DNA from: an archaeon | GTDB taxonomy: Archaea; Thermoplasmatota; Thermoplasmata; JAJSAE01 | Assembly (NCBI GenBank): GCA_024281315.1 | Contig: JAJSAE010000069.1 | Coordinates: 1-50,156 of the forward strand | Length of the DNA stretch: 50,156 bases | Reading direction: 5' to 3' | Shown here: positions 1-21,685 of the stretch, in pieces | How positions within the stretch are numbered: position 1 is the first letter of the stretch | Layout of the letters: every line of letters starts with the position of its first letter | Translations under genes and position numbers: made by a program | The notes under the pieces: model-generated | What the model was told of the DNA's origin: nothing | Databases searched by the model: none | What the model saw: only the letters and a program-made list of their open reading frames with translations

Positions 1-113
1 AGGAAGTTTCTGATATACAATATGATGCTAAAACTGTGAAAAACAAGAGGTTTCACACGGTTAAAAAAACGATGGGGTAGAAATAGGGAAGGTGAATAAG
101 CGCAGTCTCTAAC

Positions 114-761: not shown

Positions 762-762
762 C

Positions 763-1578: not shown

Positions 1579-1605
1579 GTCACCGAACCTGAAAGAGGAT
1601 GGTCA

Positions 1606-1640
1606 TATAAAAAGTTTTAAGAATGAGGAAAATCTTTTAT
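1606..1640. promoter_or_regulatory. Divergent archaeal BRE/TATA promoters for the GTPase (-) and adenosine-kinase-family gene (+)
   Basis: Minus strand AAAACTTTTTATAT; plus strand GAAAATCTTTTAT; each ~30 nt upstream of a start codon. Confidence 0.5.
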
Positions 1641-1671
1641 CCATCCCTCCCCATCTCCTTCCGGTGATAAC

Positions 1672-2154
1672 ATGAACATCGAAGAGATAAAGATAGAAAA
1701 GGATGCGTAAACCAATGTGATAATCGGCCAATCCCACTTCATGAAGACTGCGGAGGACCTGTACGAGGCCTTGGTGAATTCCGTGCCGCAGATGAAGTTC
1801 GGACTTGCCTTCTGCGAGGCATCTATGGAGAGGATGATACGGTCGGAGGGGAACGACGAGGAACTTCAGAGACTGGCGGAGAAGAACGCCCATAAAATCG
1901 GAGCGGGCCACTCCTTCGTCATAATGATTAAAGACGCATACCCCATAAACATCCTGAATGCTGTCAAGAATGTGAGAGAGGTCTGCACAATCTTCTGCGC
2001 CACCGCCAACGATGTGGATGTCCTTGTGGCCGGCAACGGTCGGGGCAGAGGCGTAATCGGGGTGATAGACGGGGAGCCGCCTCTGGGAATCGAGAACGGC
2101 GAGCAGAGGAAGAAGAGGCGGGAGTTTCTCAGAATGATAGGCTACAAGAAGTAG
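1672..2154 (+). pseudogene. Adenosine-specific kinase family (DUF355) protein interrupted by an in-frame TAA at 1708-1710
   Basis: GGTGA at 1663-1667, ATG at 1672, reads MNIEEIKIEKDA*TNVIIGQSHF; family motifs GQSHF, FGLAFCEAS, GAGH, IFCATAN, GRGVIGVIDG, IGYK; ORF track starts only at GTG 1717. Confidence 0.75.
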
Positions 2155-2155
2155 T

Positions 2156-5100
2156 TCAGCGTCTGTAGGCCCTTTCGTAGTAGTCCGTTATCTCCCAGTC
2201 TGACATCTCCCCATCTCCCTGCTCGGAGAGAGTTAGGCCGGAGCGTCTTGCCGCAAGTCTGGCCACTCTGGGAAGCCTTGAAGAGCCCTTGAACGAAGTA
2301 ATGATCAGTTCACCTTTATGAACACGGCCGGAGAATGTGCCGATTATCTTTCCCCCGTCAAGAACCAGGGATGCGGCCCCCGTATCCATGTACTGCTTCA
2401 AAAAATCGGCGAGATACAGCCTTGTCACCGAGTCCTGATAGATTATGAGCGAGTCTTTCACCTTTACCTTGGGAAGTTTCTTTATGTCCTCCGAGGGAAC
2501 CCAGAATATTCTGTCCTCATTCGTCAGGAAGAAGCCCTTAACCATCTTCCCCTCTGCCTCCATTTCGCTCAAAACCGCCCTTACTTCTGAATTGCTCATT
2601 GCAAAGCCGGAGAATGAAGAAAGATGAGAGGGATTTACGAGGCCAAAAATACTTATCCATGCCTCCACCAGCATCCTCACCGCTTCTTCCCGGCCCATCT
2701 CCGGTATCTCCGGCACCACATAGCGGCCGCGGAAGTCCTTGAACGCAAGTCCCGAGCGGAAGATGCTCTTGAGGGCACTACTTGCGCTTTCCTCGCCCAT
2801 GAGCGGGCTGTTCTTCACCTCCCCTGCCGAAAGTGGGGCATAGTTCCTTATAAGTTCCAGAACCTGTTCCTCCTCGTGCGTCAGTTCCTTTTTTCTCAAC
2901 AGAGAGATAAGGCCTGCGCTTTCCGTCTCTATGTAAGAGAGATACGGAGGGATGCCATATCCTTTCAGCACCTTCCCCTCTTTGTGCAGATAATCAAGGG
3001 GATACATCCTCCTGACGCGCTGGCCAATCTCCGGACCAGAACGGAGCGTTATCTGAGATTTTGCCAGCTCCGTGGTATCTCTATGTCTCCTGTCTTTCGA
3101 GAAACCGGCCCTCCACAGCATGTAATTCAGGGCCTGCTCCCATGAAACCGAGACGGGAGCGATATTTCCATATATCAGAGAACCGTTCATCTCCATGAAT
3201 CCGTGTTTCTTCAATTCCCTGACATCCATTCCTTCCGGTATCTTCTGGATGCTGGCAACAGTGAGGCCAAAGAACGAGTAGTAGGCCATCAGTTTTTTCA
3301 ACGCATTCCCGAACTCCTCCGGACCGACTCCGGGAAGATCGATATCTCTTATGTCTATGCCGCCGTTCAGTGGCCAGTCTTCTATCATCCCCAGAAGCGA
3401 GCCGCCGCGTATCGCTGGGTGCATCCATCCCTGCCCGTATCGCGCATATAGTTCCCTGCGAAATGTTGCGGCCATGGGGCCATAAAGGGATACGAATGTA
3501 AGAGGAAGCATGATATTCCCATCGGAGGAAACAGGGTTTTCCAGAAGGTGAAGGTCCTCTGGCATCAGGTAAAATTCCGTATCGCCGCTCCCGGTTATCA
3601 CTGCCTCCGCTCCGATTCTTTCCAGAGCTCCTCGCACCTCCATTCCAGTAAAATCCGTCTGATACCTTATCTCGGAAAGGGGGGCGGGACCAGAGGATTT
3701 CAGATATGTTTCGACAATCGCCGCAATGGCTTTCTCTCTCTCCGGCAATTTCGTCTCGTTTGTCTCCAGAAGCGAATACAGATTTCTCCTCCCCCATAGT
3801 TCCCTCCCCGTAAATTCCCTTACGATGTACATGTTCTCATCCAGAATGCGGAGAGCGGGCCTCAGTTTATCCGAGGGTATTCCGGTGTGAGCGGAAAGAT
3901 CGGATACGCCCATAGGGCCTTTTTCAAGCGCCGACAGTATTGTTCTCTCGAAAGCGTCCAGATTGCCGGGGTGGTGCGTTCTATATGCGCCTATGTAAAG
4001 AGGCACCTTCTCTCTCCGAACATAATGGACCCTTCCACTGATAAAACGGCCCCGCAGCAGCTCTCCGCTCTGCCTCAATTCGTCCCACTCATCCATTTTG
4101 AAATCCGGGACCCTATTATAAACATCCAGCGGGTCGCCGGCATGGCCGAATGTCTCGAAGTAATCATCTATGCTCTCGAAACTTCTGGTCAACTTCCACC
4201 CCTTCAGGGCACGCACCGCAGCCGCGGAATGGACCCTCTCCCCCCTAAGAATGCTGTGATAATCCTCCGACAGAATGAACTCGTTATCGTGGTGAAAACT
4301 CCCGGAAATAACCGCTCCGGCGTGCTTCATCTCCTCCAGCGTCGACAGCACATGATGCTCCGGCGTGCCCAGCCTGTGGGCCAGTTCCTGCACCCCCATG
4401 GGGCCGTAATATGAAAGGAGAATCCGAATGCCGCGCTCCACTGCGGCGTCCTCCGCATGCACCATCTTTTCTCTATCAATCCCGCGCCATTCCTCTCTGA
4501 CAAGATGAATGAGGCGGAGTTTTTCCAGGCGGTTAAGAAGGGCGAGGGACTCTTTTTTATCCCCTCCTGTCTGTTCGGAGATTATATCAATTGCCGCACC
4601 TCTTTGCACACCCTCAAGCGTAGCCGCAAGCTCCCTGTCTCTCTCGTCATAGGCCGTCTCCGGCGGCATTGCCATGAGAAGTTTGGCCAGTTTCACGGAG
4701 GCGAACATTCGCTGAGACATGTAAACAGAGACTATCCTCCAGCTGTCCTCCAGCGGCTTTGCCGCTCCCTTTACCTCCTCGAATCGGGGGCGCATGGCCG
4801 GAGGCAGCCCTGTTTCATTCTCCGGGTTAATGGGGATGTTGTCCATGAGGTCCAACAGATGCTCGGGAGTTATCTCCTCCGCTAGACGGAACTTCCTCTC
4901 GAAATGCTCCTTCAAGCGCTCTGGTTCTATTATCGGACCGCCCGGCGTGGCGGTAACTCTGCTGAGGATTCTGGTGTGCAGTTCCTTCAAAAGAGCGGTT
5001 CTATCCTCCATAAGCACAATGTCGGAGATCCCGCTGAGGACGATGCCGTAGGAAAAGGGAGAGGGGGAATCGGTGTAATCCTGGTGCTTGCAGACCCATT

Positions 5101-7558: not shown

Positions 7559-7649
7559 CTTATCACTATCGTTAAACCAAAACATATTGCAACGGTGGTT
7601 TAATAGTTTTTGTATGTGGACAGAAGTGGGTATTTTGCCCTCTTTGAGA

Positions 7650-7666
7650 GAAAAACTATTTATATG
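7650..7666 (+). promoter_or_regulatory. BRE/TATA promoter of the giant surface protein gene
   Basis: GAAAAACTATTTATAT; AGGAGTGA RBS-like sequence before ATG 7748. Confidence 0.55.
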
Positions 7667-7747
7667 GGCACTATCATGTTGCATAAAATAGGCGGTGGCT
7701 CCGAATGGGAATGGGGCAGTTGCCTGTAGACACATAGGAGTGAGTAA

Positions 7748-10700
7748 ATGAACGGGAAAAACGACGGATTAAAGAAAGGAGTGGCAGTTCTGCTGGTCCT
7801 TCTTATGGTTAGTAGCGGCTTTTTTGTCATAGTGACGGATAGCGCGGCGGCAAAGAGCAGTGACATGAGCGGCACCGCAAACCCCGCAGATATGGGGCCG
7901 GTGCAGGAGAAGACGGGGACAAATAGTGGAAGCGATAGCGCAACCAGCACAGGGAGCGATGTGAACTCGAATGCAGCAGGAAATGGTGCAGGACAGGCCA
8001 CTGTGCCCAATGATGCTGGCGGGCGCGGCCCGAGAGAGAAGAACACCGCACAAAAGGATGTGAAAACACAGGCCGCACACCCACAGGTTACAAAAACGGG
8101 CATGGATACAAATACAAAAAGATCGAACGAGAGGCGCACTTCGGAGAACAGGGAAACCGTGAATACTGCGGAGAATCCGGTTTATGCCGCATCCGTTTCC
8201 GGCAACCCTGCGCCGCCCATATCATCAAGCTGGAAGATTGGTACAATCTCTGATGTTACAGCCGGAAGCGGCGCACAGCCGGCGGCAGTCGGGCCCGTTG
8301 TGGTTGTGTATGATATGGATACGAATAAAACATACGCCAGCATTCAGGATGCCATAAACAACGCAACCTCCGGAGACCATCTGATAATTCGGGGCATGGC
8401 CTTAGAGAACATCTCCGTGGATGGAAAGACGATACAGATAGTCAACTCATCGTTTGACCTCATCGGAGACATTAGTGTAAGGAACGGCGGCTCTTTGCTT
8501 GTAGACCCGTCATGGGTCAACATGTCCGGGAACTGGTACATAGATGCGGGGGCGATAAATGTAACCGACAACACGATTGTCCAGTTCAACAACTCCTTTG
8601 ACGGTGAGTTTGGGATACAGGTGAACAGCACGGGCACCCTCATCATCCAGAACGGCAGCAAGATACAGTCCAACGGAACAGCCCAGTACTGGTTCCATGT
8701 CCTGCCGGGAGCCAGCCTTTTCATCAACGACAGCGTAGTAAAGAACTGCGGCTGGAACGACAGCGACCCGGGGCCGATGATACAGGCATCTGGCCTTTAT
8801 GTGCACAATGGCACATTCACCGAGAACGGAGCGGGCCTCATCCTTTTTGATGTGGACGGTGCCATCGTAGAGAACAGTACATTTTACAACAACTTTATGG
8901 GCGGAATCGGACTTATCGATGGAGCGGATGGGAATTACATAGCCAATAACAGCTTCGACGGGGCAGAGGGAATTCACATGGAAGGCAGCAGGAACAATGT
9001 CATATCCGGCAACCAGATGTCAAACACAACATATGGTATATATAATCAGATGTCCAACACAACATACGGCACATATAATTCATATTCTCCGTCCAACCTC
9101 CTCCAGAATCCGGGAGCGGAAACCGGCGACCTTTCCGGATGGACAATCGATGCGAACGGAGGAGCGGGGTGGAATGTCGTCGATGGCGGAGGCCGGGACA
9201 GCAGGTATTGCTTCGTGACCTCGTACGATTGGGATATAAAGCATCAGGAGATTGACCTGCTAGCCGCAGGATACACACCGGCGTTCCTTGACTCATCTCC
9301 GGATATAACGGCTTCAGAATGGTTCTACAGCAGAGTAGACCAGACCGGCATGTATGAGCTGAAAGTTGAGCTTCGCAATGCAACACATGCGGTCATCGCC
9401 AGCTGGGATACCGGTGTAAAAGACGCTCTTCCAAGGACTACATGGATACTGGAGAACCACACCTTTGCAGGATATCCCACCGGCGTCAGATATGTCTATT
9501 TTGAGGACCGTGGCAAGGATACAAGCTACTGGAGCAATTGGTATGGCGCACGGATGGATGACGCATCGCTAACTATCAAAGGATACGATAGAAATATCAT
9601 AGAAGGCAATACCATAAGCGGTCCCGGCTACGGCATATATCTCGATGGCGTATCATATAGCACCATCTCCAACAACAGCATCACATCATACAGCGGCATC
9701 TACATGAACAATTCGGATAACAACACGCTCTATAACAACGATATTACCTTCGGCAACAACAAATACGCCAACCTTGTAGCATACTGGAAGATGGATGAAA
9801 GCCAGTGGACAGGAGTCTGGGGCGAGGCAAGGGATTCATCCGGAAACGGACATAACGGATATGCACGGAATGGGGCCAACACCAATGCGTCCGGTTATTA
9901 CGGAAGGGCCGGAGACTTTGACGGGGTAAATGACTGGGTCTACATCTCGGATGGCGGCAATGCCCTAGACCTAACAGGGGACATGACCGTGGAGGCATGG
10001 ATAAATGCCCGGAGTTTCGGATGGTATGATGGAATCGTGAGCAAGTACCAGAGCTGGGGTGCAAATGGCTTCACCCTCCGACTTAGCCCTGTCGCACCAT
10101 ACAACACCATAGACTTCTGCGGCCGCACAGGAACCATTCCGCTGAATGCGAACGAGTGGTACCATGTGGTCGGGGTCATGCAGGGAGGCACGGCTAACAT
10201 ATATGTCAATGGAGTTCTAGACACTTCGGGAGCACCGGCGTATACCCGCGTCGCCAACTGGAATCCCGTATCGATTGGAGGAGATTATGTATATAGCGGA
10301 GGAAGATACTTTGACGGTCTCATCGACGATGTTCGAATATTCAATAGCGCCCTCAGTCCCGAGGAGATAAATCAGACATACAACAGCGAGTTCGCTTACG
10401 GTATTTACATGAAAGATTCGGCGGACAACAATATTTCTTTCAATCCTTCCATCAGCGATATTTCCGGATACGGGGATGCGGCAATCTATCTGGACAACTC
10501 CAGTCCAACCATATCATACGCAAACATGGACAACTCACTACAAGGTCTTGTTTGTGTTAACGGTGCGTCGCCCCTGATGGTCAGTTCCCAGATCTTGGGC
10601 AATGTGGTGGATGATGTTTATGTGAACGGGAATTCGCACCCCATCCTGTTGAATACGACATTCAATAAAGATCAGGGATATGTGATCGATTCTTCCAGCA

Positions 10701-13700
10701 ACCTGACGGTGGAATGGTATCTGGATGTCTATGTCCGGGATGCCGGCGGAGTGGCGCTTCCGGGAGCATGGGTCAATCTCACAGACAGACAGGGCAACTA
10801 CATCCCTGCCGGAACAACCGACGCTTCCGGGCATCTGGGTCCGCTTGTTCTTGTGGAATATGTCCAGAACTGGACAGAAAAGGATTACTACGCCCCATAC
10901 AATGTATACGCTGACGACGGGACTAACTACGGCTCGGAACCCGCACTGCTCGATACCTCCATGAGCGTTTACATCACCGTCGGCCTTCAGTATGTTCATA
11001 ATATCGAGCAGGACACATGGTATCCGGGGATACAGCCTGCCGTAATCATGGCCAACCCCGGAGAGCACCTGGAGGTCTATGGAGGAACGCACAACGAGAG
11101 CGCTCTCGTGGACAAAGAGGTGCACATAGCAGGCGTCGGTTCACCCCTGCCGGTCGTTAACGGGAACGGGGCCGGGCCGGCATTCTATATCGATGCGGAA
11201 GGCGTGGAGATAAGCGACCTGAACATTACGAACACCGGAGCGGCGGCCAATGAGTACGGAATCTATGCCGACACGGGCGGATTCGACATACATGACAACC
11301 TGTTTCACACCCAGAATTCCGGGGTCTATGTGGACATATATCACTACAACGAGGGCTCGATGAGTATCGGAGACATGAGCATATATAACAACAGGATGGA
11401 AGGAAACGGAATATATTTTAACCGCATCCAGTTCGACCACCCTCTGAGGGATTCCACAATCACCGTGGGGCAGATTGCCATAGACAACAACTGGATAAAC
11501 ACCACATTCGGCAGCGGTATCGAAATAGATATTGAATACACACAATACCTCTATGGCAGTACGTCTGTGGATATGGCAGGTATCGTAGCAACGGGAAACC
11601 ATATCAACAGTTCTTCGGAGTCGTTCTATCTCTATATGGACTCTGTCGGGTATTATATGTACGACACCTCCTCTTTCGCTTTCGGCGACATCGACATCAG
11701 CAACAACGATTTCATATCCGAGAATTCGGATGTCATCTATATCGATATCGGCGATAGCGGCTATTATATGTACAACTACAGCAGCTGGTCGCTAGGCACC
11801 GTGAACATCGCTGACAATACCATTGTTGCTAGAGGTCCATGGTCATCTGGCGTTGAGACCTATATTTATGACTGCGCTGAAGAAATGTACGGAAATTCCT
11901 TCGCCACCTTCGGCCCATGGAACATCCTCCGGAACGACATCACCGCCAGATATGGAGTATACACCGGACCGGAGTACTGCGGCTATGATATGTATGATAA
12001 TGCGGAACTGGTTTTCCATGACTGGAACATAATGTACAACAACATCGATGTCACCGGGACAGGGCTGGAATTTGACTATTATGACATTGGTGAGGAGATG
12101 TACGACAACAGCAGGGTAAGCGGCGGAAACAACAGGATAATGTACAACACGGTAACTGCGGAGGCCAACGAGGCCTACTATCTTTACTACGACTACATCG
12201 GATACGACATGTACGACAGCAGTTATGTTTCCGTCGGCTGGACGAACACCTCTTATAACACATTCCATTCGAACACAAGTTATGGAATGTATGTAGAGAT
12301 ATACAATCTCGGAGCATACATGGAAGGCAGCAGTCAGGCACACATCGGAGACTTCCTCTTTAACGACAATGATGTTCTGTCGAACACGAGTTATGGCATA
12401 TATTTCTATGGATGGTATGAGAACGGATATTATAACAGTGGAAACAGCTATGTTGAGTTCGGCGATGTGCTGGTGAACGACAACCGGATAACAACTAATG
12501 AGAGCACGGGGAGTTATGGAATATATCTTGAGGACTGGTACGACAACGGGGCATACCTGATGGACTTCGCAACCGTCGTATTGGGAAACTTCGAGGTCAA
12601 CAACAACACCATAAATTCCGGAAGCAATGGGATATATGTGGGCAGTTGGTATGGTTGGGGATACTATCTTTCCTATGATTTCAACTCGGGGACGCCGCAG
12701 CCTGCTTCCTGTCATGTCTCTGTAGGCCATATGCAGTTCAACGGCAACATAATAAACTCCTCGGGCGACGGGATTTATATCTACTACTTCGAAGAGATGG
12801 GCGAAGAGATGTACGGCTCCTCCACTTTCACCATGAAGAACTTTGAAGTGCGCGGGAACACCATGAATACACAGGGTTATGGAATCTATGCATATTATAT
12901 GGGGTACTTTGGATATGACCTGTATGATCAATCCGCAGTTACCATAGGTGATTTCCTCTTCAATGACAATATCATATACTCCGGGGATACGGGAATATAT
13001 ATCTCTTACTTTACTGACATAGCAGAGGAAATGTACGAATACTCCCAGTTCGGTATGGGCAACTTCGAGATGTGCCACAACACGGTCAATTCCTCGAGCT
13101 CTGACGGCCTCTATCCCGATGAGATAGAATACCTCGCTTACAATATGTACGACAACTCCCGTGCCACATTCGGCGACTTCCTGTTCAACTGGAATACGGT
13201 GACCAACGCTTCCGGCTATGCCTTCTACTCCGACTACATAGACTATCTAGCCTATGAAATGTATGACAACTCCATAGCGGTCTTCGGAAACTTTGAGTTC
13301 AACAACAACATAATGCACTCCACGGAGGCCGGAGTCTATGTCTATAACGAATACTGGGGCTACTCCATGTACGACTCCTCACAGGCATATTTTGGCCATA
13401 CACAGATGAACGACAATACTGTGAACACCACCGGAAATTCGCCTTGGGTCGTGGGTATAGAGATGGATTCGATGTATGAATTCGCCTATGAGATGTATGA
13501 TAACTCCTATTTCGAGATGGGTAATGTGGAGATATGCAGGAACACCGTGAAGACCAACACTTCCGGCAGCGGCAATGGCATAGAGGCGGACATATATAAC
13601 ATAGGATATAATATGTATGACAGCAGCCGTGCCGTCTTCCATGACTTCTTGTTCAACGACAATAATATAAGCGCTGGCGGCGAGGGCATATATTTCGAAG

Positions 13701-16700
13701 ATTTCTCTTATATCGCATACTACATGTACGACTATTCCAGTTTCAGCATGGGGGATGTGGACATGAACGACAACATCATAAGCGCCGGCGGCGATGGCAT
13801 ATATTTCGTGCCATACGAGGTAGGTGCATACATGTACTACGGTTCATCTGCCAGTATCGGAAGCAACCACATAATCAACAATAACATCACATCTGTGAAT
13901 GACTACGGGATATATTCGTGGTGGTGGTATGATTTCGGATACGAACTCTATGAGAATGCCCATCTGGAGGTCGGTAGCTCCATAATTACCAACAACACGG
14001 TATCGGCGGATGTGGATTCCGCTATCTGCACCGGCCCTTACGAGGCAGGATACGATGTTTATGACTCATCATCGGTGGTCTTCGGCAACTACATTGTTTC
14101 GAACAATACGGCCTTCTCGAACCAGAGCATGGGAATAGTGTTCTATAATTATGAAGTGGGACTTTATCTTTATGACGGCTCGTACTCCTACTCCAATAGC
14201 AGCGTGACAGTAGGGGATATCGAGATAGAGGGCAACGATGTAACGGCCCCGCAGGACACGGGTATATATTTCTATTCCGGGGATGTGGGGTATGATGTGG
14301 AATATGATTCCCGGGTAATAACAGGTGACACATCCATCAGGAACAATGCCGTAGATGCGTACGACGGGCTTTACCTTGAGGTGGACCGCATGGGATATGG
14401 AATCTACGATGATGCCGTGGCGAGCCTTGGAAGCCTTGATGCCGGAAATAACACGATAAACGCCAACACCTCCGGTGGATACGGTCTATACCTGAGGATG
14501 TATCGGGTGGCATACAACCTGTACAACGACGGCCGCTTCACGGCGGGCGATGTTTATCTGCACGACAACACCGTACTGGGATCTGGCACCGGAATGTATA
14601 TTGGGTACGCAGATTGCGGAGCAACTTACAATAATGCATACGGAGAGATTCCCGGCACCCATGCCTACAACAATGACATCACCGCATCTGACTGGGGGCT
14701 GCGCCTTGTCGGGTCCCGGAACCCGTACGCATACACGGGCGGAACACAGGTCTGGGGGCCGGTCAAGATATACGATTCGACCATCAATTCCGGCAACGGA
14801 ACATATATTTATTCGGATGCGGCCAGTACAAAGCCGGATGTCCGGATAAACGATGTCACATTCACCAAGACCGGAGCTTCAGGTCCCGGCAACGGAATCG
14901 CCGCATGGAACGGGGCCGCGACATTCGAAGGGTGCAGTTTCAGCGGATACTCACAGGGCATATATGCCAACGGCACGGACCTGACCGTTGGAAGCAGCAG
15001 TTTCAGCGGAGTGACCGGATGGGACATAAACATGACCGATGCGGCCCATGTGTTCATGGTGGACGACACCTTTAACAAGGCAAATGTTCTCTTCCAGGAT
15101 AATGCATCCATACTGGACATAGGCTGGTACATCACAATCAATGTGATAACACAGACAGGAAACGGAGTGCCTTATGCGGATGTCACCTATACATCCAATG
15201 TCTCCGCTCCTACCGTCTTTACAAAGAGTCTTGTAACCGATGGAAACGGGCAATACCTCGATATGCTGAGAGAATACAGACAGAATATAACGGGAATTAT
15301 AGAGCAGTATAACAATTACAACATGACAGGGACCAAGGCCGGCCTCACCGGATGGCTGGTTCCCGACCCGACGCCCATAGATGCGAGCAAGAATGTTTAC
15401 ATCGTTCTTACGGATACTGACCCGCCGATTCTTGGCGCAGATACATCCGATACCGCGGGAACGACGGGAGATCCGTTCACATTCCGCGTTGATGCCACGG
15501 ATACTATCGGGATGGACTATGTGACCGTTTATTACAGATACGGAAGCAGTGGCGCATATACCAGTGCAGTTATGAGCAGTAGCGACAATATCAGCTGGGT
15601 ACATACCATGAGTCTGCCCTCCAACTTCATCGGGAACATGGAGTACTACTTCATCGCAACGGACCTTGCGGGCAATACAGACACATCTGGAACAGTAGCG
15701 GTACCTATAACTGACAATGATGCGCCGTACGGGCTTGTCGATAACTCACCAGCGGTTGCATACGGCCCGACATATGAGTTCAACATGACCATAAGCGATA
15801 ATATCGATGTTACTTCCGTAACCGTAACATACTGGTTTGATTCCGAGAATCACACCACCACCCCGATGAACGGCGCAGGACCCTGGACTTACACAATAGA
15901 CCTGAACTGCTCGTGGAACAGCACCCTTCACTACTACTTCACCGCAAGCGATGCGGCAGGAAATGTCTTTACCGGCCCCACAACTGATGTACCGGTGAAT
16001 GATAACGAAGCGCCTGTGATTACCGCGGACAATTCCGATACTGCTGCGACAACCGGCGATGAGTTCCATTTCAGTGTGGACGCAACGGACAACTTCGAAA
16101 TCGGCTCCGTTACGGTAATATACTGGTTCGGAAACGGAACACATTCCAGCACGATATTGACCGGCTCGGGAACATACGCCGGAAGTATAGTTATTGATAG
16201 CGGCTCCATCGACACCCTACACTACTACTTCAATGTCACAGATGCAGCGGGAAACTATGTTATCAGTGATACCGTAGATGTTAATGTCGTGGATAACGAC
16301 CTGCCGGTAATCGCAGACATGACTGTGGGTAACCCTGTGAAGGGAAATAACTTCATAATCCTCGGAGAGGTGACCGACAATGTGGGCGTTTCCGGTGTTT
16401 ATCTGGAGTACTGGTTCGATGATGGAATACACGCCAATGAATCCATGCTGGGTGTCGGCGACATCTGGATATTCTCCGTAAGCATGCCGAAGGATGCGGT
16501 GCAACTGCATTATATCTTCCATGCGGGCGACGGAACGGGATGGAACTCAAGCTCTGAAACAATACTGGACACACAGGAGCCCATAGATAACGAGGCCCCC
16601 GTGGTGGTGGACTCCACGACAGCCGTACCGATAACAGACAGGGACTTCACATTCTCGGCTGCAGCTAGCGACAATGTAGGTGTTGCCGGAGTTTATGTCG

Positions 16701-17848
16701 AGTACTGGTTCGACAGCGGAGACCACAGCAATATATCAATGACAGAAGCGGATGCACACTGGGAATTCACCATGAGCGTTCCAGCAGATGTCACGGAACT
16801 GCACTATGTCTTCCACGCCGTCGATACATCCGACAACTGGGCCAGCACGGCAGAGGCAGCGCTCACCGTCGAGGCAACGGCCAGCGACAACGAACCGCCT
16901 GCAATAACGGACAGCACCACAGGAGTGCCCCTGAGCGGAATGGCATTTACATTCTCGGCCGATGTGACCGATAATATCGGTGTTGCCGGAGTTTATGTCG
17001 AGTACTGGTTCGACAGCGGAGACCACAGCAATATATCAATGGCAAACACAGGTAGCGAATGGGAGTACAGCATGATTGTGCCGGCGGAGGTAAGCAGGCT
17101 CCACTACATCCTTTCGGCCAGAGATACCTCCGGTAACTGGAACTCCCTTGCGGAGAAGGAACTCAATGTGCCAGCCCTGATAATCGATACCGAAGACCCG
17201 GTAATCGTATCCATACATACAAGCGAAAGTGCAACGGAAGGGGCGGACTTCTCCTTCACCGTAACTGCCACGGATAATGTTGGTGTGGGAACTGTCTATG
17301 TGGTCTACTGGACCGATGAAAATGAGCAGGCCATGGCTCTTCTGACCGGTGAAAACGGCACATACTCCGGCACCATCGCAGTACCTCAGGGCTCGCAACT
17401 GCACTTCTATCCCGTTGTAAAGGACCTTGTAGGCAACACGGCGCAGGGCAACCAGACCGACATGGACATCACGCCGGCCAGCGGCGGCGGAACCATCGCA
17501 CCGTCAAGCCTAGGGGGAACGAACCTGCTCCTGATAGCCATAATCGTTATCCTCCTTCTGATGGTCATCTACCTAGCGGCCACAAGGAACAAGGGCGGAA
17601 AGGGCGGCACTCCCAAAGCAGCAGTAGAGGAAGCACAGGAAGTTGAGGAACCTAAAGAGGAGGCCGTGGATGAAATGGAAGCGCCGGCACCTGAAAACAC
17701 AGAAGCATCTGAAATGACTGAAGAAAACTCGGAGCCAGAGCAGGCAGAAGCACAGGAAGAGGCAGGAGAAACATCAGGTGAGAGCGCGGAGACCGAAGGA
17801 GTGCCGGAAGAGGAAAAGGGCGAGGTTCTGGACCTCGCTGACTTCTGA
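7748..17848 (+). CDS. Giant secreted, C-terminally membrane-anchored surface protein: beta-helix repeats, FBA lectin domain, LamG domain, Tyr-rich solenoid, 7 Ig-like repeats, TM helix, acidic tail
   Basis: N-terminal KK plus hydrophobic signal peptide; NosD/PbH-like 'NNxIxxNxI..GIY' repeats; LamG motifs LVAYWKMDE, MTVEAWI, WYHVVG, FDGLIDDVRIFNSALS; D(N/T)xxP-headed ~100-aa repeats; TM LLLIAIIVILLLMVIYLAA; many NxS/T sequons. Confidence 0.9.
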   Translation: MNGKNDGLKKGVAVLLVLLMVSSGFFVIVTDSAAAKSSDMSGTANPADMGPVQEKTGTNSGSDSATSTGSDVNSNAAGNGAGQATVPNDAGGRGPREKNTAQKDVKTQAAHPQVTKTGMDTNTKRSNERRTSENRETVNTAENPVYAASVSGNPAPPISSSWKIGTISDVTAGSGAQPAAVGPVVVVYDMDTNKTYASIQDAINNATSGDHLIIRGMALENISVDGKTIQIVNSSFDLIGDISVRNGGSLLVDPSWVNMSGNWYIDAGAINVTDNTIVQFNNSFDGEFGIQVNSTGTLIIQNGSKIQSNGTAQYWFHVLPGASLFINDSVVKNCGWNDSDPGPMIQASGLYVHNGTFTENGAGLILFDVDGAIVENSTFYNNFMGGIGLIDGADGNYIANNSFDGAEGIHMEGSRNNVISGNQMSNTTYGIYNQMSNTTYGTYNSYSPSNLLQNPGAETGDLSGWTIDANGGAGWNVVDGGGRDSRYCFVTSYDWDIKHQEIDLLAAGYTPAFLDSSPDITASEWFYSRVDQTGMYELKVELRNATHAVIASWDTGVKDALPRTTWILENHTFAGYPTGVRYVYFEDRGKDTSYWSNWYGARMDDASLTIKGYDRNIIEGNTISGPGYGIYLDGVSYSTISNNSITSYSGIYMNNSDNNTLYNNDITFGNNKYANLVAYWKMDESQWTGVWGEARDSSGNGHNGYARNGANTNASGYYGRAGDFDGVNDWVYISDGGNALDLTGDMTVEAWINARSFGWYDGIVSKYQSWGANGFTLRLSPVAPYNTIDFCGRTGTIPLNANEWYHVVGVMQGGTANIYVNGVLDTSGAPAYTRVANWNPVSIGGDYVYSGGRYFDGLIDDVRIFNSALSPEEINQTYNSEFAYGIYMKDSADNNISFNPSISDISGYGDAAIYLDNSSPTISYANMDNSLQGLVCVNGASPLMVSSQILGNVVDDVYVNGNSHPILLNTTFNKDQGYVIDSSSNLTVEWYLDVYVRDAGGVALPGAWVNLTDRQGNYIPAGTTDASGHLGPLVLVEYVQNWTEKDYYAPYNVYADDGTNYGSEPALLDTSMSVYITVGLQYVHNIEQDTWYPGIQPAVIMANPGEHLEVYGGTHNESALVDKEVHIAGVGSPLPVVNGNGAGPAFYIDAEGVEISDLNITNTGAAANEYGIYADTGGFDIHDNLFHTQNSGVYVDIYHYNEGSMSIGDMSIYNNRMEGNGIYFNRIQFDHPLRDSTITVGQIAIDNNWINTTFGSGIEIDIEYTQYLYGSTSVDMAGIVATGNHINSSSESFYLYMDSVGYYMYDTSSFAFGDIDISNNDFISENSDVIYIDIGDSGYYMYNYSSWSLGTVNIADNTIVARGPWSSGVETYIYDCAEEMYGNSFATFGPWNILRNDITARYGVYTGPEYCGYDMYDNAELVFHDWNIMYNNIDVTGTGLEFDYYDIGEEMYDNSRVSGGNNRIMYNTVTAEANEAYYLYYDYIGYDMYDSSYVSVGWTNTSYNTFHSNTSYGMYVEIYNLGAYMEGSSQAHIGDFLFNDNDVLSNTSYGIYFYGWYENGYYNSGNSYVEFGDVLVNDNRITTNESTGSYGIYLEDWYDNGAYLMDFATVVLGNFEVNNNTINSGSNGIYVGSWYGWGYYLSYDFNSGTPQPASCHVSVGHMQFNGNIINSSGDGIYIYYFEEMGEEMYGSSTFTMKNFEVRGNTMNTQGYGIYAYYMGYFGYDLYDQSAVTIGDFLFNDNIIYSGDTGIYISYFTDIAEEMYEYSQFGMGNFEMCHNTVNSSSSDGLYPDEIEYLAYNMYDNSRATFGDFLFNWNTVTNASGYAFYSDYIDYLAYEMYDNSIAVFGNFEFNNNIMHSTEAGVYVYNEYWGYSMYDSSQAYFGHTQMNDNTVNTTGNSPWVVGIEMDSMYEFAYEMYDNSYFEMGNVEICRNTVKTNTSGSGNGIEADIYNIGYNMYDSSRAVFHDFLFNDNNISAGGEGIYFEDFSYIAYYMYDYSSFSMGDVDMNDNIISAGGDGIYFVPYEVGAYMYYGSSASIGSNHIINNNITSVNDYGIYSWWWYDFGYELYENAHLEVGSSIITNNTVSADVDSAICTGPYEAGYDVYDSSSVVFGNYIVSNNTAFSNQSMGIVFYNYEVGLYLYDGSYSYSNSSVTVGDIEIEGNDVTAPQDTGIYFYSGDVGYDVEYDSRVITGDTSIRNNAVDAYDGLYLEVDRMGYGIYDDAVASLGSLDAGNNTINANTSGGYGLYLRMYRVAYNLYNDGRFTAGDVYLHDNTVLGSGTGMYIGYADCGATYNNAYGEIPGTHAYNNDITASDWGLRLVGSRNPYAYTGGTQVWGPVKIYDSTINSGNGTYIYSDAASTKPDVRINDVTFTKTGASGPGNGIAAWNGAATFEGCSFSGYSQGIYANGTDLTVGSSSFSGVTGWDINMTDAAHVFMVDDTFNKANVLFQDNASILDIGWYITINVITQTGNGVPYADVTYTSNVSAPTVFTKSLVTDGNGQYLDMLREYRQNITGIIEQYNNYNMTGTKAGLTGWLVPDPTPIDASKNVYIVLTDTDPPILGADTSDTAGTTGDPFTFRVDATDTIGMDYVTVYYRYGSSGAYTSAVMSSSDNISWVHTMSLPSNFIGNMEYYFIATDLAGNTDTSGTVAVPITDNDAPYGLVDNSPAVAYGPTYEFNMTISDNIDVTSVTVTYWFDSENHTTTPMNGAGPWTYTIDLNCSWNSTLHYYFTASDAAGNVFTGPTTDVPVNDNEAPVITADNSDTAATTGDEFHFSVDATDNFEIGSVTVIYWFGNGTHSSTILTGSGTYAGSIVIDSGSIDTLHYYFNVTDAAGNYVISDTVDVNVVDNDLPVIADMTVGNPVKGNNFIILGEVTDNVGVSGVYLEYWFDDGIHANESMLGVGDIWIFSVSMPKDAVQLHYIFHAGDGTGWNSSSETILDTQEPIDNEAPVVVDSTTAVPITDRDFTFSAAASDNVGVAGVYVEYWFDSGDHSNISMTEADAHWEFTMSVPADVTELHYVFHAVDTSDNWASTAEAALTVEATASDNEPPAITDSTTGVPLSGMAFTFSADVTDNIGVAGVYVEYWFDSGDHSNISMANTGSEWEYSMIVPAEVSRLHYILSARDTSGNWNSLAEKELNVPALIIDTEDPVIVSIHTSESATEGADFSFTVTATDNVGVGTVYVVYWTDENEQAMALLTGENGTYSGTIAVPQGSQLHFYPVVKDLVGNTAQGNQTDMDITPASGGGTIAPSSLGGTNLLLIAIIVILLLMVIYLAATRNKGGKGGTPKAAVEEAQEVEEPKEEAVDEMEAPAPENTEASEMTEENSEPEQAEAQEEAGETSGESAETEGVPEEEKGEVLDLADF
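9011..9076 (+). repeat. Imperfect 33-bp tandem duplication (NQMSNTTYGIY/NQMSNTTYGTY)
   Basis: aaccagatgtcaaacacaacatatggtatatat then aatcagatgtccaacacaacatacggcacatat. Confidence 0.9.
16679..17041 (+). repeat. Two identical 63-bp copies (16679-16741 and 16979-17041) exactly 300 bp apart
   Basis: ggtgttgccggagtttatgtcgagtactggttcgacagcggagaccacagcaatatatcaatg occurs twice. Confidence 0.95.
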
Positions 17849-17864
17849 AAGCAACCCAAAAACC

Positions 17865-17896
17865 CTTTTTATTTCTTCTATTTTTTTATCTCTCTT
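17865..17896 (+). terminator. Archaeal oligo-T terminator
   Basis: T-tracts (tttttatttcttctatttttttatc) just after the stop of the giant gene. Confidence 0.6.
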
Positions 17897-18042
17897 GTGG
17901 TAGCAAATGATAGAATGAACTGCACGGAATGCCGGAAAGAGGCGGGAGAAGGCTGGCGAGCGGAAGATAGGAAACGCATAAAAAGCATGGACACATATTG
18001 GCCTCATCGAACAGATGTGTAGAAAAGAGGACGGTGAATGAT

Positions 18043-18555
18043 GTGAAAAGAGATTTTGTCGGGACAGACCCGAAGAATACGCTGAAACTGATGCCGCTTC
18101 CCGTGGTGATAGTGAGCGCAAGAAAGGGAGGGGAAATAAACGGCATGACTGCAGCGTGGGTATCGCAGGTCTCGGCCGAGCCGCCGGTTATCATGGTGGC
18201 AATAAGGAGTGAGAGGTACACCTGGGAGATGATGAAGGACACTGAGAATTTCGGGATATCCGTTCTCGGAGAGGGGCAGGAGAAAATTGCGGGGCTCTTC
18301 GGCAGCGTCAGCGGGCGTAACAAAAACAAGTTCAAGGAGGGAAATATTGAACCGATCGTGTCCGATGACGGCCTACCGCTCATACCCGGTTCCGTTGCGG
18401 CCTTTGTCTGCCGAAAAACGGAGGTTGTTAGTATCGGAGACCATCTGGCGGTCTTCGGAGAGATTCTGAAGAGCTGGAAGGGGGAAGAAAAATACCCGCT
18501 GATCTGGTACGGGTGGAATATATCAAAACTGGGAAACGGCTCCCGCCCGGAGTGA
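18043..18555 (+). CDS. Flavin reductase family protein
   Basis: PVVIVS, NGMTAAWVSQVS.EPP, FGISVL, GDH..FGE, PLIWY; GTG 18043 follows GGTGA at 18033-18037. Confidence 0.88.
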   Translation: MKRDFVGTDPKNTLKLMPLPVVIVSARKGGEINGMTAAWVSQVSAEPPVIMVAIRSERYTWEMMKDTENFGISVLGEGQEKIAGLFGSVSGRNKNKFKEGNIEPIVSDDGLPLIPGSVAAFVCRKTEVVSIGDHLAVFGEILKSWKGEEKYPLIWYGWNISKLGNGSRPE

Positions 18556-18578
18556 GAAACACCTTTTCCGCTTAATCG

Positions 18579-18598
18579 TGCGGATACCCGCATTTTTT
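18579..18598 (+). terminator. Short hairpin plus T-tract after flavin reductase
   Basis: TGCGG-ATAC-CCGCA followed by TTTTTT. Confidence 0.45.
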
Positions 18599-18714
18599 CG
18601 TTTATAAGCGTTTTCGGCAGTGAAGGTTTTGGCTGCGGACCCACCCCTTTATTTCCTGTGGAGATTGTGTGAAGGAAGGGAAGGGACAAATAGTTCCGAC
18701 GCATTGGGGGTTAC

Positions 18715-19262
18715 ATGAACTGGAGAAAAGATTCGCATGGAATATTCGTGAAATTGGACAGAGGAGAGGAACTGTTTCCGTCTCTCGAAGAACTGGCGGA
18801 AAAAGAGCTTCATGGCGGGGGGTGATTGTCATGGCCATAGGAATGCTTAAGGATTCCGTCGTTGGTTACTACAACGGAAAAGAGTATGAGAAGAGGGTAT
18901 TTAAAAAGGGCCACGAACTACTCGGCCTGCACGGAAGCATACGGATTCTCAATAGCACGGGAGAAGGGGATCTGAAGGATGTGGAAAGATCTGGAGGGGG
19001 CGGACAGGCGAATATAAAGACGACGGAAGAGGGAGAGAAGAAAGAGAGAAGGATTGGCCTGCATATACACTGCATGATGGCTAATGACAGGCATGAGGTT
19101 GTGGGAGGGCATCTCTTCTCAGCCACCGTCGACCCGCTGGTTGAAATGTTTATAGTGCCTGCGGAAGAGGCGCATCTAACGGTTAAGTTTAACGAAAAGA
19201 CCGGACTGGATGAAATGAAGATAGAATCGAAAATGAGTGAATATCTGGAAAACAAAGAGTAG
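18715..19262 (+). pseudogene. PPC/DUF296 domain protein split by a frameshift, most simply placed at the G6 tract 18817-18822
   Basis: ATG 18715 gives MNWRKDSHGIFVKLDRGEELFPSLEELAEKELHGGG* (typical DUF296 N-terminus); other frame continues GVIVMAIGML...ELLGLHGSI...LHIH...GGHL...VEMFI. Confidence 0.75.
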
Positions 19263-19401
19263 TCAATGGTATAAAAAAGGGGATGTAGAGTACGGAAATT
19301 ATTTCGTCAAAGTTTAAAGAGGAAAGGAAAACGGGGGAGACGAAAAAGGGAAAAGTGTCAAAAAGGAGAGAGTATAGAAAAAGGAAAGAAGGAAATAGGA
19401 T

Positions 19402-20799
19402 ATGCCGGAAAAAAAGAGAGTAATCCTCTTTACCATAAAAGAGGAACAGGGAGAAATACTGAGTCTCATAGACACGATTGGGTATGAACTCGTAAAGGTC
19501 TTCTATCAAAAGAGAAGGAAGCCAGATCCGAATTATTTTCTTGGAAAAGGAAGATTTGAAGAGGTCCAGGAGTTTTTGGGAGTTAAGGATGAGGATGAAG
19601 AAGACAAGGAACTGAGAACGATAGTCGAGAAGATTGAGGGAAAAAAGAAGGAAAAGGAGAGAAAGAAAAGGAGAGAGGAAGCGGACATCGATGCGGTCAT
19701 TGTGGATGCCTCCGTAAGGCCGGGCCAGCACTACAGGCTAGAGATGGGTCTGGAACTGGAATGTATAGACAGAATCGGTCTCATCCTAAGCATCTTTAAA
19801 GAACACGCACATACAAGAGAGGCGAAACTCCAGGTGGAACTTGCAAGACTTCAGTATCAACTACCTCTTATAAAAGAATGGGTTCACAGGGGAAAGGAGG
19901 GGGAAAAACCCGGATTTATGGGCGGTGGCGCCTACGATGTGGATGTATATTATCTCATGGCAAAGAGGAGAATAAGCCGCATAAAAAGGATGTTTCAGGA
20001 TATTGAAAAAGATAGGGAGGTAAAAAGAGAAATAAGAAGGAAGGGGAATACAACGGTTGTTGCCATCGCCGGTTATACCAATGCCGGAAAATCAACGCTT
20101 CTGAGGACTCTGAGTGGTGATGATAATGTTTATGTGGACGATAAACTCTTCGCAACACTATCTCCGGTTACGAGAAGGGCAAAGGATAGAAGAAGACCCG
20201 TTCTCTTTACGGATACTGTGGGCTTCATAGACGACCTTCCCACCGAAACCATAGAGGCCTTCATGTCAACATTGGAGGAAATTTTTACAGCCGATCTTGT
20301 GCTTTTAGTGATAGATATAAGCGATTCTGAGGATGAAATAAGAAGGAAATTAAAGGCCTCTCTGGATATCCTTCTGCCGGATGTGGGAAACGATAGAATA
20401 ATCTATGTAGCCAACAAGACGGATACACTTTCCGAGAGAGGAAAAGAAAGAAAGATAGCTTTTGTTATAAATAATATAGGAAATGACACGATTTTTATTT
20501 CCGCTCTTGATGGCGATGCGAGAACAAGGGTTATGAGAAAGATATACTCCAGAGTCAAGAAAGGGAGAAATAGAGTATTCATAAAATTACCTGCGGAGAA
20601 AGAGGAGACCTACAGAGCCATCAATGAGATAAAAAGAATAGCTATTGTCTCTTCCATGGATTTTAAGGACGAACGGCTCGAAATTACGGCCTATGTTCTC
20701 AGAGATAAGATCGATCATCTGGAACACATTGTGAGCGGCCTTAAAGGTGAGATTATAGTCTTCCCGGAAAAAGATGATGATGTTCCATTATATGCCTGA
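19402..20799 (+). CDS. hflX: GTPase HflX
   Basis: YFLGKG, DRIGLILSIF..HA.TREAKLQVELA.L.Y, GYTNAGKSTL, LFATL, DTVGF, NKTD, ISA. Confidence 0.93.
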   Translation: MPEKKRVILFTIKEEQGEILSLIDTIGYELVKVFYQKRRKPDPNYFLGKGRFEEVQEFLGVKDEDEEDKELRTIVEKIEGKKKEKERKKRREEADIDAVIVDASVRPGQHYRLEMGLELECIDRIGLILSIFKEHAHTREAKLQVELARLQYQLPLIKEWVHRGKEGEKPGFMGGGAYDVDVYYLMAKRRISRIKRMFQDIEKDREVKREIRRKGNTTVVAIAGYTNAGKSTLLRTLSGDDNVYVDDKLFATLSPVTRRAKDRRRPVLFTDTVGFIDDLPTETIEAFMSTLEEIFTADLVLLVIDISDSEDEIRRKLKASLDILLPDVGNDRIIYVANKTDTLSERGKERKIAFVINNIGNDTIFISALDGDARTRVMRKIYSRVKKGRNRVFIKLPAEKEETYRAINEIKRIAIVSSMDFKDERLEITAYVLRDKIDHLEHIVSGLKGEIIVFPEKDDDVPLYA

Positions 20800-20926
20800 A
20801 TGATGAGAAATAGATGGATGGTAAACGGATTTAAATTTGAGTATTTAATGGATGATTAGTGGATAGTACTAATGACTAGGGTTGGAAGGTAATTGTATTA
20901 ATGAAAAATCGGTGATGATAATGGAT

Positions 20927-21316
20927 TCACATCTTAATTCTGAACTCGTCCATCTTCTCCAGAACCATGTCCTCGTATCTCTGGGGCAGGCTCCATCCGA
21001 GATATTGAACATCTTCAATGTTCCTTATGAACTTTGACTTGCTGTTTTCGGTCAGATATTTCTCCAGTTTCTTCACCTTCTTGAAGTGGTCGTAAACCCA
21101 CCATGCTCCGAGTATCAAAACAGCAGGCGATAGGAGGAGAAGCCAGAGATTCCAGTCTCCGACTTGTGTAGCTACTGCAGAAAGACCAGAAAGGAGGGAC
21201 GGAACATTATTCTTGAAAAAGACACCTACCGTTGCTATGAGCGTTCCTATTCCGCCGACAACCGAAAGAACGGCTCCTATTTCCATTCTGTATTCCACGC
21301 TGAACTTCTTTGCCAT
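20927..21316 (-). CDS. Small two-TM membrane protein (DUF3198-like)
   Basis: GAGGTGA RBS then ATG 21316 (MAKKFSVEY...); two hydrophobic segments, then SKSKFIRN...L.W.LP; the longer ORF-track start overlaps the tRNA. Confidence 0.7.
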   Translation of the reverse strand: MAKKFSVEYRMEIGAVLSVVGGIGTLIATVGVFFKNNVPSLLSGLSAVATQVGDWNLWLLLLSPAVLILGAWWVYDHFKKVKKLEKYLTENSKSKFIRNIEDVQYLGWSLPQRYEDMVLEKMDEFRIKM

Positions 21317-21358
21317 TTTGCTCACCTCTTCTTGTATTGCCTCGGTGGGTTTATTGAG

Positions 21359-21432
21359 TGGGCCCGTCCGGATTTGAACCGGAGACCTCCGCCATGTCAA
21401 GGCGACGTCATAACCAACTAGACCACGGGCCC
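21359..21432 (-). tRNA. tRNA-Val(GAC), intronless, CCA not encoded
   Basis: GGGCCCG TGGTCTAGTTGGTTATGAC GTCGCC TTGACAT GGCGG AGGTC TCCGG TTCAAAT CCGGA CGGGCCC A folds into a full cloverleaf. Confidence 0.97.
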
Positions 21433-21444
21433 TTCACTTCATTC

Positions 21445-21648
21445 AGGGCCCTAGGCCGTAAACATCCTCCGGAGTTTACTCCTCACGGGCCCTTTATCCT
21501 ATTTATTTGGCCCTAGCTTCCGACTATCGTCGGTCACCACGGACCTTTTCAGTTTATTCAGGCTCAAGCACTTGACTCTTTCCGGTTGCGGCGAGCCTTT
21601 ATACAGTTTTTCCAGTCCACCCCCTAGTTTCGTATCATTCAGGTGGTG
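21445..21648 (-). ncRNA. Candidate ncRNA array: four related stem-loop units upstream of tRNA-Val
   Basis: Closing stems CCACC/GGUGG, AGGCUCG/UGAGCCU, GGUCC/GGGCC, AGGGCCC/GGGCCCU; A-rich linkers; CUAGGG x3 and CCUGAAU x3; G-U pairs favour the minus strand. Confidence 0.55.
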
Positions 21649-21671
21649 TTTTTATGGCTGGTATGACGGGC

Positions 21672-21685
21672 TATAAACTTTCTCT
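21672..21685 (-). promoter_or_regulatory. BRE/TATA promoter for hairpin array and tRNA-Val
   Basis: Minus strand AGAGAAAGTTTATA, ~24 nt upstream of the first hairpin. Confidence 0.6.

Follow-up and report, generated by a model that had tools for sequence, protein, structure and literature searches.

Hairpin cassettes that copy the end of the adjoining tRNA gene in Thermoplasmata archaea

Archaeal tRNA leaders are usually treated as short throw-away sequence. In Escherichia coli, tRNA-linked repeats (TLRs), for example those downstream of tyrT, re-use the 3' end of a tRNA, and the kink-turn (K-turn) motifs of C/D and H/ACA RNAs are known to bind L7Ae. Here we describe an array of hairpins that lies between a promoter-like element and the gene for tRNA-Val(GAC) in a 50,156-nucleotide (nt) stretch of archaeal DNA (contig JAJSAE010000069.1 of assembly GCA_024281315.1, lineage Thermoplasmata; JAJSAE01; hereafter "the window"), as well as the family of repeats to which two of these hairpins belong. 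Elements named t-elements, in which tRNA-like structures serve as processing signals for RNase P or RNase Z, are described for plant mitochondrial mRNAs (PMC1920247), and a t-element upstream of 5S rRNA in Haloferax volcanii was used in PMC4326828. In hairpin model substrates of RNase P, e.g. the pAaT series (PMC12439589), an acceptor stem is stacked on a T stem and the 5' strand has a small bulge.

Full-text literature searches turned up no report of archaeal hairpin repeats that match tRNA ends. Two units of the array belong to a conserved, apparently undescribed family akin to TLRs or to tRNA-like leader elements, with an unusually well-defined core. Members of this family, which we call cassettes, share one fold, are linked to tRNA genes, match the end of the tRNA that they adjoin and turn over rapidly between relatives.

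Each cassette is closed by an outer stem of 6-7 base pairs (bp), the 5' strand of which repeats nt 1 to 9 or 10 of the adjacent tRNA. Inside this stem, one extra (bulged) base on the 5' strand is followed by a 4-bp helix (in the order U-A, G.U, R opposite Y, and S-S') and then by a near-invariant tandem G.A/A.G in which both strands read 5'-GA-3'; these two and the upper stem-loop make up the conserved core. The upper stem comprises 9-10 bp and a triloop in the long type, and 5 bp and a tetraloop in the short type.

In the window, the four hairpins start at 21648, 21597, 21545 and 21492 of the minus strand, on which all unit coordinates are read; they are spaced by 51, 52 and 53 nt and joined by A-rich linkers, and the motifs CUAGGG and CCUGAAU both occur three times in the array region. 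All this, together with the B recognition element (BRE)/TATA-like element upstream, had been indicated by a first-pass annotation and was confirmed by the sequence. The 228-nt leader (21660-21433) folds into exactly four hairpins, with a minimum free energy (MFE) of -72.3 kcal/mol as compared with -56 +/- 4.4 for 200 dinucleotide shuffles (z = -3.73), none of which was as stable. The earlier description of four related hairpins holds for the number of hairpins and for the membership of units 3 and 4 in one family, but not for the other two, unit 2 being decayed and unit 1 unrelated. Unit 4 has an outer stem GGGCCC/GGGCCC, a bulged G, the 4-bp helix, the G.A/A.G pairs (with G.G at one position) and an upper stem of 9 bp that has one bulged U and ends in a triloop; it opens with the same 9 nt as tRNA-Val(GAC). 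Unit 3, in which a 5-bp upper stem is capped by a GAUA loop, has short-type relatives before tRNA-Val(CAC) in the same genome and before both Val tRNAs in the sister species. The shared geometry of these two units and their tRNA-like start, both noted earlier, were borne out. Unit 2 reached only 7.4 bits (E 0.12) with R2, one of two models of the family used in this work, and this score came from the outer stem only; it aligns to the short subtype and has kept the outer stem, while both GA dinucleotides are gone. Unit 1 gave no match with R2 and does not align with the short subtype. The orthologous tRNA-Val(GAC) locus of the sister species lacks units 1 and 2. The region, with its two intact cassettes (units 3 and 4), a decayed one (unit 2) and an unrelated hairpin (unit 1), can be read as the 5' leader of the tRNA-Val(GAC) precursor, a view to which we would give slightly less than even odds.

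These cassettes can be compared with the systems mentioned above. Like t-elements, they would place a short acceptor-stem RNA beside another RNA in one transcript, where it could plausibly be recognised by tRNA end-processing enzymes; unlike t-elements, they have no T-arm or T-loop, copy a specific neighbouring tRNA, stand in tandem before real tRNAs and possess an invariant G.A core. When we compared the cassettes with the features of a t-element, we found an acceptor-like stem, but no T-arm-like stem-loop (the upper stems have 5-10 bp and the loops show no T-loop consensus). With the TLRs, they share the tandem direct repetition of a tRNA end beside the gene, the arrangement in the families designated f10 and f13, where units end in the 3' end of the tRNA (see below), being the closest. 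They differ from them in that the copied end is paired around a conserved, covarying core, that in the window's own genome it is the 5' end that is copied, upstream of the gene, and that several archaeal families are concerned. The resemblance to the model substrates of RNase P lies in the 6-7 bp stem identical to the acceptor, the single bulge on the 5' strand, the continuing helix and the purine-rich, single-stranded leader. It is a structural analogy only, as the model substrates have a T-loop and a 12-bp stack, while the cassettes have about 20 pairs and a triloop. Finally, the tandem sheared G.A/A.G beside a regular stem and the C-box-like RUGASGA recall K-turns; yet a 3-nt bulge is absent from the cassettes, a covarying Watson-Crick pair adjoins the G.A, and a kink geometry is not encoded.

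The genome to which the window belongs (G000; 1.75 Mb in 107 contigs, 91% complete) contains further copies. BLAST of the leader against this genome gave six further places that match unit 4 and, in part, unit 3, with one to three similar hairpins upstream of tRNA-Val(CAC), Pro(GGG), Pro(CGG) and Arg(UCU), always on the tRNA strand; similar hairpins also precede an intron-bearing tRNA-Pro(UGG) that ARAGORN did not call. A covariance model (R1) made from 14 copies, nine from G000 and five from its sister species (G001), gave 11 matches in G000 at E <= 0.03. Ten of these precede six tRNA genes (two Val, three Pro, one Arg), within about 200 nt upstream and on the tRNA strand (Val-GAC, Val-CAC, Pro-GGG x3, Pro-CGG, Pro-UGG, Arg-UCU x2). 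This placement is not due to chance, because the 200 nt upstream of about 40 tRNA genes make up only about 0.2% of the two strands. The eleventh match is in the 5' leader of a gene for a VWA-domain protein. A few core subtypes recur at many loci and in both species, and upper-stem sequences are nearly identical across loci and even across families (AAAAUUCC/GGAAUUUU). Rfam at gathering thresholds found only the tRNA in the window; at E <= 10, it matched nothing on the array in the segment 21300-21800, where chance-level matches were confined to the sequence outside the array, and at the other cassette loci it detected only tRNA and 5S rRNA. Thus, the Rfam scan proposed in the first-pass annotation assigned no known family to the array. 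A search with a hairpin descriptor was abandoned in favour of covariance models, since it yielded 29 matches that were mostly spurious and missed most true copies.

Several observations were made at individual loci. In the leader of the VWA-domain gene, the GA cassette (L004:1498-1543, plus strand) stands directly after a TATA-like motif, and a half cassette, GGGCCGGUGAGGAG (L004:1561-1579), overlaps the ribosome-binding site and start codon. The tRNA-Pro(UGG) gene of G000 (contig C90, L005:1563-1740, plus strand), missed by both ARAGORN and Rfam, is interrupted at the canonical position by an intron of about 90 nt, which is absent from its orthologue in G001 (L040). Both tRNA-Gln genes of G000 (L115:207-258, minus strand, and L116; contigs C40 and C98) are preceded by divergent GA-type hairpins, spotted by eye, whose outer stem copies AGCCCCGUA of the tRNA; one of them scored 14.4 bits with R2.

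The match between hairpin and neighbouring tRNA was most apparent at tRNA position 7, which is G or A. The same base was found in the hairpin and in the adjacent tRNA in 24 out of 24 hairpins from G000, G001, G017 (family f16) and G155 (from outside the class): it is G in the tRNAs of G000 and in Pro and Arg of G001, and A in Val of G001 and of G017. Most hairpins share 8-10 of the first 9-10 nt of the adjacent tRNA. The Arg hairpins contain the U5 of that tRNA and have A, not G, opposite to it in the 3' strand, which indicates that the 3' strand is matched to the copy and was not taken from the tRNA's own 3' end. A test that made no use of the models gave a similar picture, the first 8 nt being repeated within 400 nt upstream for 10 of the 39 ARAGORN tRNAs of G000 (about 0.24 expected), while the last 8 nt were repeated downstream for none of the 39. 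Such copies might suggest decayed tandem duplicates of tRNA genes (pseudo-tRNAs) without a function of their own, as had been considered earlier, and indeed the units start with tRNA nt 1 to 9 or 10 and end with an acceptor-like 3' strand, and units 1 and 2 look decayed. We find this explanation very unlikely. No more than the first 9-10 nt derive from the tRNA. The inner core bears no relation to the local tRNA; cassettes that precede Val, Pro and Arg tRNAs share it with those adjoining Ala, Gly and His tRNAs in other lineages, and it is held by compensatory changes. Furthermore, no unit was scored by ARAGORN or by the Rfam tRNA model, which recognised only the real tRNA in the window.

Alignments of the cassettes in the two species and in more distant relatives pointed to a conserved, covarying fold. 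In the 14-copy alignment, 94.4% of the cells pair, as compared with 87.0% in column shuffles (0 of 500 shuffles reached 94.4%), and pairing falls to 26-50% if the partner is slid by 1-3 columns. Four pairs vary on both sides, including S-S' (GC 7, CG 6) and the fifth pair of the outer stem (CG 7, UA 5). A larger alignment of 39 copies from at least four families (G000, G001, G017 and several f10 and f13 genomes), which was fitted to the model and so leans toward it, shows 91.2% pairing against 78.5% when shuffled, with 14 of the 18 pairs varying on both sides (S:S', CG 25, GC 11). The paired cells of these 39 copies include 46 G.U/U.G but only 6 A.C/C.A, and the four GA positions are kept as G 38, A 38, G 39 and A 38. 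The G.U excess and the retention of the GA positions indicate that one particular strand folds, and hence that the fold is one of RNA or single-stranded DNA rather than a protein-binding site in duplex DNA. Taken with the tracking of position 7, the covariation and the one-strand G.U excess support a selected single-strand fold.

The same alignments bear on the proposal of the first-pass annotation that the array encodes guide RNAs, in the form of atypical H/ACA or C/D box RNAs. The outline of stem, internal loop and stem is compatible with it, as are an AAA/AUA found 12-16 nt after the upper stem of unit 3 and a Nop5 gene (Pfam Nop, 2e-55) that was indeed identified nearby. Moreover, GUGAGGA and GUGGUGA are each one mismatch away from the C box motif (RUGAUGA). 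However, the strands of the supposed internal loop, or pocket, pair with each other and covary (S:S'), and the GA dinucleotides, near invariant in 39 copies, are not variable guide sequence: the letters read as guide are precisely those that the family conserves. The partner of the C-like strings is GAS'YUA in the 3' strand rather than CUGA, which occurs only after units 2 and 4, outside the stem, and no D box is placed to pair with the C-like box. There is no A-N-A 13-21 nt after the upper stem of unit 4. The absence of a K-turn in the upper stems, already remarked upon, was confirmed: the loops are plain tri- or tetraloops, and the tandem G.A has a Watson-Crick pair on either side and lacks a 3-nt bulge, which leaves no K-turn or K-loop. 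By eye, the GA core could not be read as a K-turn (no 3-nt bulge), a bulge-helix-bulge motif (no opposed bulges) or a hammerhead (no helix I/GAAA) either. The bipartite targets that had been proposed gave 0 exact matches in the genome, and 2 and 1 under relaxed conditions as against about 3.3 expected; no Rfam guide family matched, including C/D families at E <= 10. A guide function thus appears extremely unlikely to us. What survives of the earlier idea of a multi-unit noncoding RNA is a structured, conserved and covarying element with a tRNA-like start between a promoter and a tRNA.

Four of the ten tRNAs with a repeated 5' end carry no GA hairpins detected by the models. Inspection of such loci revealed a second self-matched module. 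Before Ser(CGA), Ser(UGA), Leu(CAG) and Arg(CCU), as well as before Arg(UCU), the upstream sequence repeats more of the tRNA 5' end (to about nt 14-18); next come a conserved GGCGCAC...GUUGCGCC hairpin module and then the complement of the repeated segment. With blastn-short, this module was also found before Leu(GAG), Leu(UAA) and, weakly, Lys(CUU). Rfam matched neither the second module nor the Gln hairpins. At the Arg(UCU) locus of G000 (contig C59, L006:1341-1435, minus strand), an 80-nt piece between the GA cassettes and the tRNA starts with the first 18 nt of this tRNA and bears the second module; it is conserved in G000 and G001, and the counterpart in G001 (L039, contig C19) also holds a masked run of N. 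Altogether, self-matched leader cassettes precede about 14 of the about 40 tRNA genes of G000, i.e. six with tandem-GA cassettes found by the model, the two Gln genes with divergent ones and about seven with the second module, including one that has GA cassettes as well.

The GTDB order of the window's genome comprises only G000 and G001, which both possess the family. In a sample of the class, 22 of 151 genomes matched R2 at E <= 0.01; they belong to families f1 (1/1), f10 (7/7), f16 (1/1), f13 (2/3), f3 (4/5), f12 (1/1), f2 (1/3), f9 (1/8) and f15 (3/17). At the same threshold, no match was found among the sampled genomes of f4 (0/16), f6 (0/16), f8 (0/10), f11 (0/15), f18 (0/12) and others. 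In a phylum-wide sample of 151, two genomes from outside the class matched at E <= 0.001. In one of them (G155), the GA hairpin stands upstream of an intron-bearing tRNA-Arg and copies its first ten bases. The class and phylum sets being samples, genomes without a match are no proof of absence. An exact AAAAUUCC-type core pattern recovered six stretches in two Thermoplasmata metagenome-assembled genomes and is too strict for mapping the distribution. GA-hairpin arrays were also seen in a genome of another class (G187; L107:1390-1560, plus strand, and L109:1440-1620, minus strand), with outer stems UUCCCC/GGGGAA and UUCCAC/GUGGAA and no tRNA called nearby; the sequence after one of these arrays begins with the letters of its outer stem.

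The orientation of the cassettes is not the same in all families. In G017, hairpins lie upstream on the tRNA strand, as in G000, and a reverse-complement copy, ending like the tRNA 3' end, lies just downstream of tRNA-Pro and tRNA-Val. At 9 of the 10 f10 and f13 loci with a called tRNA, the hairpins lay on the 3' side of that tRNA (one for Ala, Gly, His or Ser), and their folding strand was antisense to it; at the remaining locus they were 5' of the tRNA and also antisense. ARAGORN called no tRNA at 9 of the 22 loci examined in this comparison, one of which holds an antisense intron-bearing tRNA seen by eye. On the folding strand, f10 units start with the reverse complement of the tRNA 3' end. 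Whatever the orientation, the layout of the folding strand is always a tRNA-end-like segment, the GA core and the complement, repeated, and then the same segment continuing into the gene. One variant deserves separate mention: in G053 (L079:345-470, plus strand), partial antisense tRNA-Ala copies are interrupted at the junction of D-arm and anticodon stem by a GA-hairpin insert, and many short contigs of this genome end in such repeats.

This mirrored arrangement is relevant to the possibility that the cassettes are genes for small stable RNAs, excised from tRNA-linked transcripts (which in f10 and f13 would be transcribed convergently to the tRNA) and acting either through a protein that recognises the invariant tandem G.A core or through their tRNA-matched strand, which would bind the neighbouring tRNA, or its precursor, at the 3' acceptor strand by base pairing. 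We regard this as unlikely. It would account for the conservation of the GA positions (38-39 of 39 copies) and of upper-stem sequence between families, for the sharing of few core subtypes by many loci and both species, and for the TATA-like motifs upstream of f10 arrays on the GA strand and the T-run after each f10 hairpin. Moreover, in both orientations, the GA-strand start of every unit is complementary to the tRNA 3' acceptor strand. In f1, however, the matched strand is fully paired within its own hairpin, neither a K-turn nor a protein partner was identified, and copy number and order vary freely among sister species and strains, which would be unusual for dosage-sensitive functional RNAs.

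The variation just mentioned was evident at orthologous loci. Before tRNA-Val(GAC), G001 has a long-type cassette followed by a short-type one, while G000 has short then long and two extra hairpins; the numbers of cassettes also differ between the two species before Val(CAC) and Pro(UGG). In four metagenome runs, with one contig each, the tRNA and the segment 21649-21800 match at 80% or more, and 208 unlike letters replace the 214-nt array. One short metagenome contig joins the last linker to a short-type core. The orthologous loci and metagenome contigs thus indicate that the flanks are conserved and that the array is reshuffled cassette by cassette.

Such shuffling among relatives is also what one would expect of a DNA-level element, in which the hairpins would be the single-stranded recombination or transposition sites of a nonautonomous cassette that targets tRNA-gene ends; the copied end would then be a target-site duplication or attachment (att) core, and the RNA fold a by-product. 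Near-identical cores with locus-specific outer stems at different loci are in line with this, as are the order of tRNA-end copy, core and rest before an intact gene (5' in f1 and f16, 3' and reversed in f10, f13 and f16), the existence of a second, unrelated module built alike, and the GA hairpin inserted in the partial tRNA-Ala copies of G053. Against it, the 3' strand is complementary to whichever tRNA end adjoins, which a fixed mobile sequence would not give, and the G.U excess (46 versus 6) fits RNA at least as well as single-stranded DNA. No candidate enzyme was found either: the Y1 transposase domain PF01797 was not detected in G000 or G001, nor in any of the three f13 genomes, and in only one of the seven f10 genomes. 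This domain was present in 54 of the 151 genomes overall and common in families without hairpins. We consider a DNA-level element improbable. An element of the repetitive extragenic palindromic (REP) or IS200-IS605 type was discarded, as the PF01797 search showed no association of the hairpins with Y1 (HUH) transposase genes.

The features of the locus and those of the second module are collected in Table 1. In G000, linkers near-identical to UGAAUGAAGUGAA (YUGAAYGAAGUGAA) are placed before Val(CAC), Pro(GGG), Pro(UGG) and the Arg locus, and such linkers recur at four places in G001. The promoter segment (nt 1-50 of the leader query) is 92% identical in G001, and a TATA-like motif of the same type is present upstream of every other array in G000. 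A candidate internal promoter in the 3' half of unit 4 (TTTAC, -30 to -26) was rejected, being far weaker than the TTTATA upstream of each array. A second TTTATA, on the plus strand at about 21686-21691 (21684-21694), is back to back with the leader promoter and would serve a divergent gene of the IF-2B family. Downstream of tRNA-Val(GAC), a small DUF3198 protein is encoded.

Table 1. Position of the leader elements, of neighbouring genes in the window and of the second-module loci
Feature	Position	Strand	Basis
BRE/TATA-like element (purine-rich stretch, then TTTATA)	21672..21685	minus	sequence reading; putative promoter
Unit 1, hairpin at predicted transcript start	21617..21648	minus	MFE fold
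Unit 2, decayed short-type cassette	21561..21597	minus	outer-stem R2 score and alignment to short-type units
Unit 3, intact short-type tandem-GA cassette	21509..21545	minus	R2 14.3 bits, E 0.0028
Unit 4, intact long-type tandem-GA cassette	21446..21492	minus	R1 71.9 bits, R2 65.4 bits
Purine-rich conserved linker UGAAUGAAGUGAA, last cassette to tRNA +1	21433..21445	minus	recurrence at other loci
tRNA-Val(GAC)	21358/9..21432	minus	ARAGORN; Rfam tRNA 65.3 bits
IF-2B-family gene, divergent	21749-22819	plus	
Nop5 gene	23305-24498		Pfam Nop
Second-module loci in G000 (contigs C84, C53, C16, C99, C15, C87, C22)	L111:134-221, L112, L113, L114, L117, L118, L119	minus (L111)	

The interpretation that we favour, with a probability of about 0.45, is that the array is part of the primary transcript of tRNA-Val, and that its self-folding cassettes lock the duplicated 5' ends, leave with the leader when RNase P cuts, and spread by duplication and recombination. 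Transcription would start about 25 nt downstream of the TATA, and the cassettes would fold one after another as they emerge. Each duplicated tRNA 5' end would be locked in an autonomous, rod-like helix, the base of which resembles an acceptor stem bulged on its 5' strand; folded in this way, the surplus copies of the tRNA 5' strand may be kept out of competition for the tRNA's own 3' acceptor strand. Cleavage by RNase P at tRNA +1 would then remove the cassettes, with possible further cuts at the acceptor-like base of each; a gene for archaeal RNase P RNA is present in G000 (186.8 bits). The cassettes could multiply and move between tRNA leaders through duplication and recombination at the repeated tRNA-end copies. 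Their 5' strands would thereby stay the same as the local tRNA end, while the complementary 3' strand would be restored by selection.

Several points weigh against this interpretation. The main one is that the f10 and f13 units, being antisense and mostly 3' of the tRNA, cannot be tRNA leaders, so that a reading confined to leaders misses part of the family. A cassette also stands before a protein gene, the one for the VWA-domain protein, and the near-identity of the upper stems is more suggestive of sequence-specific recognition, or of a recent transfer, than of hairpins that simply fold out of the way. As the cassettes have no T-loop, cutting at their base by RNase P is suggested only by analogy with the hairpin model substrates. 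The sequencing runs that share words with the locus were only DNA runs or contig runs of unknown type, with 6-13% of the words, and no RNA run was among them. Finally, the aligned copies come from kin that are not independent, the GTDB order consisting of two genomes only.

A broader idea, which we consider quite unlikely, is that the tandem-GA cassettes and the second module represent a novel type of small genetic element that homes to tRNA-gene ends by base pairing, has its stem re-templated on the tRNA end where it lands, and spreads in this way across loci and Thermoplasmata families; its RNA may pair with the neighbouring 3' acceptor strand as a tRNA-specific handle on precursor processing or turnover.

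The family provides a ready covariance model for annotation, and regions of this kind may at present pass for pseudo-tRNAs or guide RNAs. Should the cassettes prove to be processed or bound, tRNA biogenesis in thermophilic archaea would have a layer that has gone unrecognised; should they prove mobile, they would be a new tRNA-targeting element.

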